From the NCBI GenBank assembly GCA_038727135.1, contig JAVYWL010000001.1, forward strand, positions 256,001-320,000: DNA of 64,000 bases. The letters are read 5' to 3'. Shown here piece by piece: positions 2,802 through 56,954 of this stretch. Source of the DNA: Candidatus Bathyarchaeia archaeon (GTDB lineage: Archaea > Thermoproteota > Bathyarchaeia > Bathyarchaeales > Bathycorpusculaceae). The translations under genes and the position numbers were made by a program. The stretch's first letter is position 1, and each line of letters starts with the position of its first letter. Below the pieces are notes generated by a model. The model searched no databases and was not told where the DNA came from. It was given only the letters and a program-made list of their open reading frames with translations.

Positions 2802-3845
2802 TTACACCAACCTAATTCTGGGGTCTATATACGCATATAAAATGTCAACTATTAGGTTTGCAATAACGAATAGGAAGGCGCTCAACATTGCATAGCCTAA
2901 AACTGCTGGAATATCAAACTGAAGCGCCGCTCTTGCAGCCCATTGGCCTAGTCCGCCGAAGGCAAACACTGTCTCCGTTATTACAAGTCCCCCCAATAAG
3001 CCTGCGATTAACATTCCTGAAAGGGTGACCACTGGTATCAAGGCGTTTCGCCTGGCATGCCTATAAATAACTGTTTTGTCGTCAAGTCCTTTTGCCTTTG
3101 CAGCGAAAGTGTAGGGTTTGTTTAGGGCTTCTAGCATGGATGAACGCATAACTCTAATTAGTAATGCTATGTTTATTGTGACTATGACTATGACGGGGAG
3201 TATTAAATGCTTAAGGACGCTGAGGGTTATTTCAAGCCTTCCGTTTAAAAGGCCGTCGAATAAATCTATGTAAGTGTAACGAGTAAACAGTTGGGGATTG
3301 TTTCTAATATCCATTAGATGCGGGTCAAGGGGGCCCGGGGGCAACCATCCCAGGTGACCATAAAATACTGATAGTAGTATGAGGCCTAACCAAAATGATG
3401 GTAAGGACCATCCGAGAATGGAAAGAACTCTGCAGAAGTTGTCAATTATGCCGTCCTTATGAATGGCTGCTTGAACTCCTAAAAAAATCCCTATAAAAAT
3501 GATTAGAGGTGCTGCAAATAGTACTATTTCGAATGTGTACGGCCATCTTTCAAGTATGGCGCTGGCGACCGACTGTTGGGAGCTTTTGGAAAATCCTAAG
3601 TTTCCTTGAAGTACTTGACTTAGCCACGCGAAATATTGTTCGTGCAACGGTCTGGTTAAGCCATATTGTTCTGCTATGCGAGTTAGTTGTTCTGGGCTTG
3701 TGTGTTGAACGTTTCTGACATAAAGCATTGCTCTGACTTCAACGGGAACCATTGCTGTTATTGCGAATATTAAAACTGTTACACCTAAAAGTACAAAGAT
3801 TAGAAGTATAAGCCTTCTTACAATATATGCTAGTAGGGAGGTCAT
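2802..3845 (-). CDS. oppB: Peptide ABC transporter permease (OppB/DppB)
   Basis: YIVRRL start, GNLGFS, AKAKGL loop, HARRNALIP, DILYAYIDPRIR; ATG at 3845 preferred over the upstream start. Confidence 0.95.
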   Translation of the reverse strand: MTSLLAYIVRRLILLIFVLLGVTVLIFAITAMVPVEVRAMLYVRNVQHTSPEQLTRIAEQYGLTRPLHEQYFAWLSQVLQGNLGFSKSSQQSVASAILERWPYTFEIVLFAAPLIIFIGIFLGVQAAIHKDGIIDNFCRVLSILGWSLPSFWLGLILLSVFYGHLGWLPPGPLDPHLMDIRNNPQLFTRYTYIDLFDGLLNGRLEITLSVLKHLILPVIVIVTINIALLIRVMRSSMLEALNKPYTFAAKAKGLDDKTVIYRHARRNALIPVVTLSGMLIAGLLGGLVITETVFAFGGLGQWAARAALQFDIPAVLGYAMLSAFLFVIANLIVDILYAYIDPRIRLV

Positions 3846-16116: not shown

Positions 16117-16149
16117 ATAAGCCTTAAATTGGATTATTTACATTTTTAT

Positions 16150-16222
16150 TTTGGATGATGAGCTGGAGAGTCAATAGAGCTTTGCATAAGCTGTGATATG
16201 ACTCGACGGGCGAACTGACACA
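16150..16222 (+). ncRNA. Box C/D 2'-O-methylation guide sRNA
   Basis: Box C ATGATGA 16155-16161; D' TAGA 16175-16178; GCTT/AAGC stem; C' GTGATAT 16193-16199 with compensatory pairing to D'; box D CTGA 16215-16218; TATA-like TTAAAT at 16124-16129. Confidence 0.72.
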
Positions 16223-16376
16223 TAAAAATTTGTTGTGTGACGTCAGATCTTGTGCAATATGTTCAGAATGTTGCATGAAGTTTAGTTGAAATTTTGATGA
16301 ATTTTTAGAATTTGTTGTGCGTAAGTCTTTTAGAGTATGCTTTCGTAATAAACACTAAAAGCATGAGGGAAACATC

Positions 16377-18185
16377 ATGTTAAAAAGATCATTGTCTATC
16401 GCCGCAATAACCTTTATCCTTGCTTCAACAATGTTTGGACTTTGCAGAATCCCTCTTTCAAACGCAGCTGAATCTACCGTTAATGCCAATCCAAGGATCA
16501 TTTATTGGCCTGCGCCTCAAGTATGGCAAACAGAAGATGGACATATCATGTGGAATTCTGGAGGCATGATCGCAACAAGCATCACATGGTCCCCCTCTGG
16601 AGAGATACTATTAATAGCTGGTTCTGACCGTTTTGTGGTAATTAACGCAAGCACTTGGTCGCCGATTAGTGACTCTTGTAATCTGTGGGGCTATAGCGGT
16701 CAAGGCGTGTTTGATAATTTTGTTATTTCGCCAGACGATTCAAAAATATTCTACATCAACGCCAGCTATGTATTTGCTCCTTCTTCCGCAATATATTCAA
16801 AGAACTTGGATGGTACCAATCCAACTTTCATAACCTACGTTAATAGTTGCTCCTCATGCGTACCCACATTCTTTGACTTATCAAGGGATGGCACAACATT
16901 GCTTTACACAGAATTTGCAGAGAACCATTCTACATATCCCTACACCCGTTTCAGTCGCATTTGGAAAGTCAACCTCGAAACAAGCGAGAGATCACTGGTT
17001 CTGGAACTTGAGGGGACAGATAACCAGATGTTTAGCGTTAGGTTTTCTCCATCAAACGACAAGATAGCCTTCACAACGTACACTGGCGTTTGGATAATTA
17101 ACTCCGATGGAACTAACCTAACCAAGATTGCTGATATCTCAGAAAACAACATTGCAATGCATTTAAATTGGGCGCCGAATGGAACAATGCTAACATACAC
17201 GGAAGTTAATTATGGAGGAAGATATGATTACCATCCATATAATATTTGGTGGGATAGTAGTAACATCACAGCTATAAATGTTGATGGAAGCAACAAACAC
17301 ACGATTTTTTATGGCGCCAAATGTTGGACATGGTCGCCCCTCAACGATTCCATAGCCGCCTTCATTAAAACAATAAGAGACGTTCCATATCTTATAGACT
17401 TAAGCCTTCCAATATCCTCCAACCCGGACAGCGACGGAGACGGCCTATCTGACCGCGAAGAAATTTTCTGTGGATACTTTAACCCACTGGATCCAACAGA
17501 CATCTACAAAGACTATGACAATGACGGGTTGACCAACTTGGAAGAGTATGAGTTTAACATAAAGCGGACTAGTGTTGGAACTTACCCGTTAAATCTATTA
17601 AATCCAGATACTGATGGGGATGGACTCAGCGACGGTGTTGAAATCAAAGTTTTCCGGACAGACCCCATAAGAAGAGATACGGATGGTGACGGCATAGATG
17701 ATGGTCATGAGGCTGCAGCGACTGGTTTGAACGCTTTCATCTCCGTTTTGCCGGAAGGTTGGATTCGCATGCAGCTAGAGTGGCGAAACAAGAGAATGTA
17801 CGTTTCCACAAACTCTTCTGTGCTTGGCGTGGTCTTCAACTCTACAAGCATGACTTTAAGCGTAAACGTTGGCGGTCCAGACGGAACAACGGGAATAGCC
17901 AACATCACCATACCAGTTGAAATGATTAGTTCGCTTTCAGCCGTAAAAGTGACATTAGACGATCAGCCCATAGACTTTCAGATAAGTCAGGCTGGCGGAT
18001 ACGCTCAAATCTACGTGCAATACCACCACAGCTACCACCAGTTAGCAGCGCATTTAAGCGGTGGCGGTGGCGTCAGTGGTGGCTTTGACTTTACGGGCAT
18101 ATTAAGCTACTGGTGGCTGATATTATCAGTTGCCATCGTAGCCGTTGCATCTGTGATAGCCGCAATAATCGTGAAACGAGGATGA
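16377..18185 (+). CDS. Surface protein: TolB/WD40-like beta-propeller, DxDGDG Ca-binding repeats, C-terminal TM anchor
   Basis: Signal peptide; WSPSG/ISPDD/FSPSN/WAPNG repeats; DSDGDGLSD, DYDNDGLTN, DTDGDGLSD, DTDGDGIDD; Gly linker and TM helix. Confidence 0.88.
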   Translation: MLKRSLSIAAITFILASTMFGLCRIPLSNAAESTVNANPRIIYWPAPQVWQTEDGHIMWNSGGMIATSITWSPSGEILLIAGSDRFVVINASTWSPISDSCNLWGYSGQGVFDNFVISPDDSKIFYINASYVFAPSSAIYSKNLDGTNPTFITYVNSCSSCVPTFFDLSRDGTTLLYTEFAENHSTYPYTRFSRIWKVNLETSERSLVLELEGTDNQMFSVRFSPSNDKIAFTTYTGVWIINSDGTNLTKIADISENNIAMHLNWAPNGTMLTYTEVNYGGRYDYHPYNIWWDSSNITAINVDGSNKHTIFYGAKCWTWSPLNDSIAAFIKTIRDVPYLIDLSLPISSNPDSDGDGLSDREEIFCGYFNPLDPTDIYKDYDNDGLTNLEEYEFNIKRTSVGTYPLNLLNPDTDGDGLSDGVEIKVFRTDPIRRDTDGDGIDDGHEAAATGLNAFISVLPEGWIRMQLEWRNKRMYVSTNSSVLGVVFNSTSMTLSVNVGGPDGTTGIANITIPVEMISSLSAVKVTLDDQPIDFQISQAGGYAQIYVQYHHSYHQLAAHLSGGGGVSGGFDFTGILSYWWLILSVAIVAVASVIAAIIVKRG

Positions 18186-46391: not shown

Positions 46392-46469
46392 GCGGCCGTA
46401 GTCTAGCCTGGACTAGGACATCAGCCTGCCACGCTGACGACCCGGGTTCAAATCCCGGCGGCCGCACCA
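46392..46469 (+). tRNA. tRNA-Gly(GCC), CCA encoded, no intron
   Basis: GCGGCCG/CGGCCGC acceptor stem; TCAGC-CTGCCAC-GCTGA anticodon arm; CCGGG-TTCAAAT-CCCGG T arm; ACCA end. Confidence 0.97.
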
Positions 46470-55991: not shown

Positions 55992-56906
55992 TTACGTTAT
56001 GATTTTAGGCTTCCTAAGACAATATCCCCACTCGGTCTTAGTAACCAGTTCATAGCCTTCCATGAGATATTTTGTGAGCTCTTCTTTATCATTGGCATAT
56101 ACAACATTATATTCATTCTCTCTGATCCATTGTTTTACAATGTGCACATATTTTAATGTGTTCTGAATGTTGCAGTGTCTTGCAAATCTCTGAGTTTCCA
56201 CAATGTCTTTTGTTTTAAAATATTTCCATGATATAGCAAAATGTCTTAATGTATGGAAATGAATCTTAAGGAAGTCATTGTTACCAGTTTCTTTAGCTAA
56301 TTTCTTAACATAGTTCTTTAACCAGTCATTAATTGTTCGAGGATTCTTTAATGGGAAAACTCTATCAGACTCTTTGGGTAACTGCATTAGAAGAGTGAGT
56401 AGCTCTTCAGACATTGGATAAGTGTTGGTTCTATGCCCTTTAACTCCAGTTATTGTTAGGGTTTTATTCTGTAGGTTGACATCTTTCCATCTAAGGTTCC
56501 ACACTTCAGACTCGGTGGCTCCAGTTTCAACAGCTATCAGAACCATAGCCCTAAGCTTAATGCTCTGTATTCTATAGACCAGTTGTTTAATCATTGATGG
56601 ATTGGGAACATAAAGCTCAGAATTTTTGTAGGCTTTGAAACTGGGTTTTAGAACTTTTAGACCTTTAAACTCTGCAAATTGTTGTACTGTTATCAAGGCA
56701 TACTCCTTAGTCCCATCAGACCATTTAGAAGCTAATATTTGATGGTACATATCCTCAATAGAACCCTTTAAAGCCTTAAGTATCTTCAACTTTCTATGTA
56801 TTGTTGATTCTCTGTTACCTTTCTTGAAAAGCCACAATGCAAAGTTCAAAAGTTCACTGTTATATGTAGGTAGGACTGTAGAGCCGGGGGTGGGAGTTGA
56901 ACCCAC
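55992..56906 (-). CDS. Tyrosine recombinase/integrase (Int(C)-like; frame overlaps att and tRNA-Cys)
   Basis: ETGATESE, LRWKDV, VKG, HTLRH, ARH, TLKY; start ambiguous (GTG 56948, GTG 56906 or TTG 56849). Confidence 0.92.
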   Translation of the reverse strand: MGSTPTPGSTVLPTYNSELLNFALWLFKKGNRESTIHRKLKILKALKGSIEDMYHQILASKWSDGTKEYALITVQQFAEFKGLKVLKPSFKAYKNSELYVPNPSMIKQLVYRIQSIKLRAMVLIAVETGATESEVWNLRWKDVNLQNKTLTITGVKGHRTNTYPMSEELLTLLMQLPKESDRVFPLKNPRTINDWLKNYVKKLAKETGNNDFLKIHFHTLRHFAISWKYFKTKDIVETQRFARHCNIQNTLKYVHIVKQWIRENEYNVVYANDKEELTKYLMEGYELVTKTEWGYCLRKPKIIT

Positions 56907-56908
56907 AT
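56879..56908 (+). repeat. att direct repeat overlapping the tRNA-Cys 3' end
   Basis: Identical to 51757-51786. Confidence 0.95.
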
Positions 56909-56954
56909 ATAGCTGCTCTGCAGGCAGCCGCCTGAACCGTTCGGCCACCCCGGC
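56882..56954 (-). tRNA. tRNA-Cys(GCA), no intron, CCA not encoded
   Basis: GCCGGGG/CCCCGGC acceptor stem; GCTGC-CTGCAGA-GCAGC anticodon arm; GTGGG-TTCAACT-CCCAC T arm; U73 discriminator. Confidence 0.96.

Follow-up and report, generated by a model that had tools for sequence, protein, structure and literature searches.

Does a short gap between two genes of an uncultured archaeon encode a guide RNA, and which ribosomal nucleotides would such an RNA address? The question was raised by a 64,000-nucleotide (nt) stretch of the Candidatus Bathyarchaeia archaeon assembly GCA_038727135.1 (contig JAVYWL010000001.1; the whole stretch is called the window below), in which an initial annotation, made from the letters alone, had proposed a box C/D small RNA (sRNA) acting on both ribosomal subunits. 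We find that window 16152-16220, on the plus strand, is almost certainly a real box C/D sRNA, and conservation, kink-turn covariation, a promoter and the presence of the machinery genes identify it as a genuine, previously undescribed one. We favor, with moderate confidence, a reading in which this sRNA has its own promoter, a D guide on C1402 of 16S ribosomal RNA (rRNA) and a D′ guide on C1920 of 23S rRNA (E. coli numbering). It is an ordinary kind of archaeal RNA, and its unusual feature is a conserved pairing of its two spacers with each other.

All four boxes stand in the correct order within 16152-16220 on the plus strand: box C (AUGAUGA, 16155-16161), a degenerate D′ box (UAGA, 16175-16178), the C′ box (GUGAUAU, 16193-16199) and box D (CUGA, 16215-16218), each where the initial annotation had read it. 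The RUGAUGA near the 5′ end and the CUGA near the 3′ end that are required of an archaeal box C/D sRNA are both found. A strict whole-genome scan for this box arrangement returned two loci in the real genome and none in the reversed-sequence control. The host assembly (G000), which is archaeal and comprises 1.55 Mb in 7 contigs at ∼44% G+C, also encodes the machinery, with the fibrillarin gene (329 bits) adjoining that of Nop5 (Nop, 262 bits) on contig C2 and L7Ae (107 bits) on contig C1. The second locus returned by the strict scan, on the minus strand of contig C3 near 130360-130425, is a canonical sRNA: its guides are 12 nt long and its D′ and C′ boxes lie 4 nt apart; its D′ guide forms 11 base pairs (bp) with the 23S rRNA of a same-genus relative at position 2639.

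Homologues were sought by BLAST (query, window 16130-16240; E≤1e-5) in 60 relatives and found in 32, namely 11 of 13 genomes of the genus, 16 of 23 from other genera of the family and 5 of 24 from the rest of the order. The similarity begins and ends at 16149-16220, just before box C and just after box D. An alignment of 30 homologue sequences (28 distinct rows) shows variable flanks, an apical loop that differs in length and sequence, and invariant boxes: box C with its two preceding G residues is unchanged in 30/30 homologues, as are box D and the C that follows it, the GA of the D′ box and the UGA of the C′ box. The conservation in relatives that had been suggested as a check was therefore found, with the boxes kept and the similarity bounded by C and D. 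A covariance model built on this alignment, which gives the sRNA body itself 97.9 bits (model R1), matched 67/151 genomes of the order (31/35 in family f1, 18/25 in f6, 7/35 in f7 and 2/34 in f11) and 40/151 genomes of the class. An exact-pattern scan of one genome per species gave at least 120 matches, nearly all of those listed being Bathyarchaeia or Bathyarchaeota metagenome-assembled genomes (MAGs). Among the matches listed, two (L179 and L192) lie on contigs titled bacterial MAGs (Chloroflexia and Limnocylindrales), probably mis-binned archaeal contigs.

We further investigated whether the sRNA carries signals for its own transcription. Across 27 distinct upstream flanks, which are otherwise unrelated, the A+T fraction peaks at 0.78-0.93 between 31 and 26 nt before the box C adenine, and the A/T-rich box found there has the conserved form AAAGCCTTAAAT at a fixed distance from box C. 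In the window this corresponds to a TATA-like box, CCTTAAAT (16122-16129, plus strand), preceded by an A-rich BRE-like stretch, an archaeal-type promoter. Archaeal TATA boxes are centred ∼26-27 nt before the transcription start, so the conserved position of the box predicts a start near 16153. Downstream, the T-run at 16229-16231 may act as a terminator. In many relatives, the 3′ flank (L012-L018, L020, L021, L024, L028, L032 and L034) shares ACGGAAAGCTTATCAG(C) after the sRNA, which resembles the BRE/TATA promoter of the neighbouring gene; the host genome has another neighbour at this place. Two raw-read RNA runs, sampled at ∼12% and ∼5%, gave 1 and 5 reads on a 1001-nt stretch around the locus, and 6/6 of them fall within bins 16138-16239. 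All six continue into unlike letters, with strand and ends unset, and this counts against taking them as transcripts of the proposed sRNA; these tails may come from short inserts read into adaptors or from transcripts of relatives. The reads are only suggestive of expression as a small RNA. The sRNA stretch was also present as contigs in two hot-spring runs marked "probably DNA", where the contigs show that relatives share the conserved core.

Could the boxes be chance motifs, part of a 50-codon minus-strand open reading frame (ORF) that overlaps the sRNA at 16124-16276, or a protein-binding kink-turn in the leader of a gene? The locus is intergenic, in the gap between two plus-strand ORFs, a small one without Pfam match and one of 602 amino acids with repeat and beta-propeller matches. 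The minus-strand ORF does exist, and the Rfam matches are all below threshold (sR2, 16.7 bits against a gathering threshold of 42). Conservation nevertheless halts at boxes C and D within that ORF, and homologues differ in length by 1, 5, 6 or 7 nt, which is not codon-wise and so rules out coding. The sRNA also has its own conserved promoter, while the neighbouring genes change between relatives. Already disfavoured, an origin other than an sRNA is scarcely credible.

Rfam at gathering thresholds returned no sRNA family over the whole window, only two transfer RNAs (tRNAs), and at loose thresholds only sub-threshold matches to sR2, sR3 and sR23 (full-length sR2, 16.7 vs 42 bits; sR3, 12.9 vs 41). 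By its sequence, the sRNA belongs to no Rfam family. Our literature search nowhere found Bathyarchaeia and box C/D sRNAs mentioned together. Identical guide cores had no match in the supplement of PMC6009581, where an equivalent sRNA may be missed if the long supplement files are incomplete; in the supplements of PMC4644070, the cores gave only unrelated M. kandleri sRNAs and rRNA alignment rows, and an equivalent may likewise be missed.

The D′ and C′ boxes deviate from consensus, and the initial annotation had held that these deviations pair with each other. We built a kink-turn model that joins the terminal pairs, the non-canonical C′/D′ stem and the apical stem. In the alignment, 90.7% of the cells of this model are paired and 12 cells are changed on both sides, values neither of which was reached in 500 shuffles, and slid controls lie far lower. 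The D′ box occurs as UAGA, CAGA, CCGA, UGGA, CUGA, UUGA and AUGA; its first two bases covary with C′ positions 5-6, and C′ positions 6 and 7 covary with the D′ box and the base preceding it (column pair 31-56: UA 18, UG 4, CG 2; column pair 30-57: AU 22, UA 3). The 4-bp apical stem (G16179-C16191 to U16182-A16188, closing a 5-nt loop within 16179-16191) serves as the canonical stem of this kink-turn; its G-C and C-G pairs are invariant and its two inner pairs are changed on both sides in 5 and 2 distinct rows. The sheared G-A pairs and the 3-nt bulge (U16192-U16194) are assigned after the textbook kink-turn. The claim that UAGA and GUGAUAU pair is borne out by the pairing of the model and by its covariation, and the C′/D′ motif is a kink-turn with an apical stem rather than a K-loop.

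The terminal stem of that annotation stood only in part. Two short inner pairs (U16152 and G16153 with A16220 and C16219) are kept: G16153-C16219 forms in 28/28 distinct rows and U16152-A16220 in 24/28, with one U-G and three unpaired rows, without covariation. The distal 7 bp, in which TTTTTAT (16143-16149) is complementary to ATAAAAA (16222-16228), occur in the host genome and its nearest relative only and lie upstream of the predicted start, although some genus-mates have other complementary flanks at the same position. The distal stem is probably not transcribed.

Which nucleotide would the D guide address? The D spacer comprises 15 nt (16200-16214), and its guide (16204-16214) has the core CGACGGGCG (16204-16212), the exact complement of CGCCCGUCG in the host's own 16S rRNA (contig C2:617), with 9 Watson-Crick bp. 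One criterion for archaeal sRNA targets is an uninterrupted run of 9 or more Watson-Crick pairs about the fifth base upstream of box D or D′ (PMC6009581), and the D guide forms such a run with its own 16S rRNA. The host assembly holds only the 3′ half of the 16S gene, both rRNA genes being cut by contig ends; numbering was therefore taken from a relative of the same genus with complete rRNAs (G005), 99.5% (16S) and 98.4% (23S) identical to the host's partial ones. With its 16S aligned to the annotated E. coli 16S, the base opposite G16210, the fifth base before box D, is C1402. The claim that the guide pairs at this site and that the +5 rule lands on C1402 thus holds, with the numbering verified. 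The host's own 16S and 23S genes are unlinked (C2:1-745 and C1:818329-820020), and the 3′ end of the 16S gene is followed by protein-coding DNA.

Nearly all homologues in the class retain the D core at 2 nt from box D. The conserved bases of this core are precisely those that pair, and 7,428 nt of rRNA and tRNA contain one perfect complement to it. C1402 is ribose-methylated by RsmI in E. coli, with equivalents at yeast Cm1639, human Cm1703, Arabidopsis Cm1645 (guide U43) and P. abyssi Cm1369 (PMC11542601). Two observations weigh against the assignment: shuffled guides equalled the observed D match in 70/300 trials, and one homologue (L059, from genome G172) has the D guide CGACGGACG, with an A at −5, opposite C1402, and so a mismatch at the target base. 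The latter is either a decaying copy or an assembly error. Altogether, we consider it highly likely that the D guide directs methylation of C1402, and this assignment is strong.

In five genomes without a model match, a pattern search for the C1402 guide gave two matches, of which one looks coding and the other lies in genome G054. The latter (L283; G054:C4, ∼3411-3425, minus strand) reads GAUGAUU, a 12-nt guide UCGAUGGGCGGG and CUGA behind an A/T-rich box, and is a possible minimal sRNA that keeps the C1402 register. Another GUGAUGA follows it directly.

The D′ spacer (13 nt, 16162-16174) would address a different subunit. Its core GAGAGUCA (16166-16173) is invariant or nearly so in the 30-sequence alignment, where positions 16162-16165 vary freely, and helix 69 of 23S rRNA contains the only complement to this core in the 7,428 rRNA and tRNA nucleotides. 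The initial annotation had made this target conditional on a helix 69 variant in the host. That variant, UGACUCUCU, is present in the 23S rRNA of 6/6 relatives (G005, of the same genus, G021, G026, G172, G024 and G135), all six reading GUAACUCUGACUCUCU(C/U)AAGG over this stretch; helix 69 had been sought in 10 further relative genomes and found in 3, MAGs often being without rRNA. With the same-genus 23S, the D′ core pairs with UGACUCUC by 8 Watson-Crick pairs and one G-U. The base opposite G16170, the fifth before the D′ box, aligns with the C of AACGG in the E. coli 23S, the homologue of C1920 (the annotated E. coli 23S in this alignment has 2906 nt, two above the usual numbering). C1920 is the site of TlyA, for which the fragment AA[Cm]GGU has been reported, and it is described at bridge B2a (PMC5778110). 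Helices 68, 69 and 71 are predicted archaeal methylation hotspots (PMC4644070). In the 23S rRNA of G135 (L079), an insertion of ∼28 nt, which may be a small intron or an expansion, lies just after helix 69, between UGACUCUCUCAA and AAGGUAGCC.

Among 91 distinct homologues, found by BLAST or by the model, 44 pair over at least 7 bp with helix 69 and place C1920 at the +5 position, 34 of these 44 at 9-10 bp. The same guide occurs in an unrelated setting, in two genomes of another taxonomic family. In these, G045 and G197, which belong to one genus, we found a different sRNA of canonical form, which has its own promoter and guides of 12 and 11 nt; G045 has no model match in the order and class scans, and G197 is outside the genomes listed with a match in the order scan. 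Its D′ guide AGAGAGAGUCAA, followed by AUGA, forms 10 bp in the same register (paired against the 23S of G005 rather than its own), and nothing in this sRNA pairs with the D′ guide, which thus has no partner in cis. A class-wide pattern of box C plus helix 69 guide gave 39 matches vs 19 in a backward control; the 30 loci read from it comprise 7 of the same family, the new sRNA of G045 and 22 unlike sRNAs.

Several observations speak against the C1920 assignment. The host's own 23S gene covers only model positions 16-1686 of 2987, so its helix 69 is not in the assembly, and with 8 Watson-Crick pairs and one G-U the D′ duplex is borderline, below the 9-bp threshold. Among the 91 homologues, 18 place the next base at +5, mostly with 7 bp, 2 use other helix 69 registers, and 27 have a weak or no helix 69 match or other guides. 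Shuffled guides equalled the observed D′ match in 60/300 trials. In a loose genome-wide census of C…D pairs with target matching, a 9-pair match was found for 29/124 pairs vs 5/32 in the reversed control, a signal not separable from noise. Taken alone, guide-target complementarity is weak and does not exceed chance; the target case rests on the coincidence of conserved and paired blocks, on the single complement of each core and on the G045-type sRNA, which has the same guide independently. As to the initial proposal, the helix 69 variant it called for and the +5 placement on C1920 were found in the relatives, whereas the host's own helix 69 is unreadable and the duplex includes a G-U pair. 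The D′ guide, judged from these comparisons, probably directs methylation of C1920, an assignment of moderate strength.

The D′ guide might target some other RNA, for instance tRNA-Pro(UGG) at position 41, where the host's own D′ spacer makes a 10-pair run, with 2 G-U, that sets C41 at +5, which counts against helix 69. This match depends on positions −10 to −12, freely variable among relatives, and the conserved core matches only helix 69 in the scanned 7,428 nt of rRNA and tRNA, a set with mRNAs, 5S rRNA and the host's missing rRNA outside it. We regard such a target as highly improbable.

In some homologues the D′ guide is replaced altogether. An alternative guide, UUCAGCCUU, is complementary to 16S AAGGCUGAA and places G902 at +5. 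In L062, L069, L070, L073 and L075 (families f14 and f17), the C1402 guide is partnered by UUCAGCCU(U/A)A, the complement of the same 16S AAGGCUGAA, with E. coli G902 in helix 27 at +5. The family thus keeps its C1402 guide constant and exchanges the D′ guide.

The two spacers also pair with each other. GAGTCA (16168-16173), in the D′ guide, is complementary to TGACTC (16199-16204), a 5′ extension of the D spacer that begins at the last C′ base. This extension, UGACUC in the RNA, does not pair with 16S rRNA, yet it is conserved and identical to the helix 69 target. The resulting cis helix is part of the minimum-energy fold (−20 kcal/mol, z −2.29, 6/200 shuffles as good) and in the consensus fold of the alignment, where 97% of its cells pair and changes are one-sided transitions that retain G-U pairs. 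At least 5 contiguous cis pairs form in 106/116 distinct helix-69-type homologues, in several registers, with a mean score of 5.71 vs 3.33 for shuffled extensions (the set includes pattern-selected loci and related sequences, so that no probability attaches to this difference). The registers differ by lineage: UGACUC; ACUCUC(G); UGACUCUC, with 8 pairs, in G024; and GACUCUUG with CAAGAGUU in G059. Homologues with other D′ guides have no extension motif. The guide-guide pairing that had been noticed in the host letters is thus real and conserved, and from the alignment, the folds and the 116 homologues we conclude that pairing between the spacers is selected. A further pairing of the extension, with 16S 1493-1498, was dropped as post hoc: it has 6 pairs with G-U, and the variants ACUCUC and UAGCUC would not fit.

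This helix bears on whether the D′ spacer is a guide at all. In L111 and L120 (CGAGAG with CUCUCG) and in L063 (GAGCUA with UAGCUC), the cis helix is kept while the helix 69 match has decayed, so the D′ spacer could be structural, and in the fold predicted for the RNA alone the cis helix occupies the D′ guide; both observations tell against a helix 69 guide. The D guide on C1402 might then work alone, the D′ spacer and the extension forming a structural helix that extends the C′/D′ kink-turn, and the helix 69 match being a coincidence or a relic. The greater persistence of the cis helix, the pairing of the D′ guide in the free fold and the 27/91 homologues without a good helix 69 match all fit such a single-guide sRNA, and by simple arithmetic an 8-mer has a chance of ∼1 in 9 of finding a perfect complement somewhere in 7.4 kb. 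A purely structural helix should drift by compensation, as seen in the apical stem, yet GAGAGUCA hardly varies within the family, and A16167, outside the cis helix, is conserved too. Moreover, the C1920 register goes with the longest duplexes (34/44 at 9-10 bp), and G045 and G197 keep the same guide and register, over 10 bp, without a cis partner. We find a single-guide sRNA rather unlikely.

The helix could also belong to a chaperone of rRNA folding, instead of or beside a methylation guide, which would hold the top of helix 44, invade the helix 69 stem as the ribosome assembles and swap strands through the cis helix. The D′ guide can pair only by displacing the helix 69 stem's 5′ strand; the extension is identical in sequence to the 3′ strand of helix 69, the extension ACUCUCG of family f6 could pair with the displaced 5′ strand, and a chaperone role of sRNAs is discussed in PMC6009581. 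Against this, the host's own extension forms only ∼4 bp with the helix 69 5′ strand vs 6 bp in cis, and the fixed +5 registers point to catalysis. Such a chaperone is very unlikely.

Returning to an sRNA that guides methylation at two sites, the assembled RNP might work as follows. L7Ae would bind the two kink-turns, C/D and C′/D′, on both of which Nop5 and fibrillarin would then assemble. The D guide CGACGGGCG, the conserved anchor of the family across Bathyarchaeia, would pair with 16S 1400-1408 at the top of helix 44; the D′ guide GAGAGUCA, a lineage-specific module, would pair with 23S 1917-1924/5, that is, the loop end and the 3′ strand of helix 69, a pairing that would set C1920 at the site of methylation. 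The binding of the proteins, the methylation and a role for the cis helix, if any, are all inferred here from sequence comparison. Possible roles of the cis helix are to fold or stabilise the RNA when free, to keep the D′ guide masked, or to take part in a strand exchange with helix 69. One conceivable form is a built-in pseudo-substrate, in which the first six bases of the D spacer copy the helix 69 target and close the D′ guide until 16S rRNA on the C1402 guide opens the helix; alternatively, the cis helix would swap strands with helix 69 and aid its unwinding. We hold a pseudo-substrate to be doubtful. If true, it would mean that large-subunit methylation is licensed by small-subunit engagement, and that one particle makes ordered or coupled modifications on both faces of the subunit interface.

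The proposal that the two guides act on both sides of bridge B2a is only roughly right: C1920 is described at B2a (PMC5778110), whereas C1402, at the top of helix 44 in the P site, is not among the B2a contacts quoted in PMC4644070.

How does this sRNA compare with known systems? It resembles archaeal box C/D sRNAs, such as the sR families of Pyrococcus, Sulfolobus and Pyrobaculum, in its box order, its two guides, the +5 rule, rRNA targets at functional centres, its own promoter and the machinery genes. The nearest Rfam models are sR2 (RF01139) and sR3 (RF01133), and it falls outside both, at best with 16.7 vs 42 bits. Its spacers of 13 nt (D′) and 15 nt (D) exceed the 10-12 nt given for archaeal guides, and where the archaeal C′/D′ norm is a K-loop, it has a kink-turn with a 4-bp apical stem (PMC7994747). 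These lengths sit poorly with an ordinary two-guide sRNA; among the 91 homologues, D′ spacers are mostly 11-13 nt and D spacers mostly 15-17 nt (the latter with 2 box bases subtracted from the parsed lengths). The conserved cis helix between the spacers sets it apart as well.

The eukaryotic snR70/U43 (SNORD43) and the guide for P. abyssi 16S Cm1369 address the same cytidine as the D guide, E. coli C1402 (PMC11542601), a likeness of target rather than of tested homology. In snR70, too, the guide duplex is very short and a stem lies between D′ and C′; the construct studied is its C′/D′ region, whereas in the archaeal sRNA C1402 falls to the D guide, and the extra pairing of snR70 is to rRNA beside the target, whereas the extra conserved bases here pair with the RNA's own other guide (PMC3116282). 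In bacteria, the same chemistry is carried out by RsmI (Cm1402) and TlyA (Cm1920; in type II also Cm1409), and the marks Cm1402 of RsmI and Cm1920 of TlyA are at the two predicted target positions of this sRNA (PMC5778110, PMC11542601). Type II TlyA likewise modifies one cytidine per subunit at the interface (PMC5778110). Unlike the sRNA, these enzymes act as proteins on their own and find their sites with no guide RNA, and the 16S site of TlyA is C1409, not C1402.

To the large, uncultured group of Bathyarchaeia these comparisons add a well-supported family of methylation guides; they further suggest that one RNA makes two marks that bacteria make with two enzymes, the universally conserved Cm1402 and Cm1920 at the TlyA site. 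They also point to a modular history, the C1402 guide being fixed across the class and its partner directed to helix 69 in some lineages and to 16S G902 in others. A guide that pairs in cis with a built-in copy of its target, a pairing that is conserved, offers a simple candidate element for the control of guide RNPs.

Elsewhere in the window, a sub-threshold Rfam match to the iron response element (16421-16440, plus strand; 22.7 vs 34 bits) falls inside the 602-amino-acid ORF and is most likely due to chance. The two tRNA genes, at 46392-46466 (plus strand) and 56882-56954 (minus strand), are the sole Rfam matches in the window at curated thresholds.

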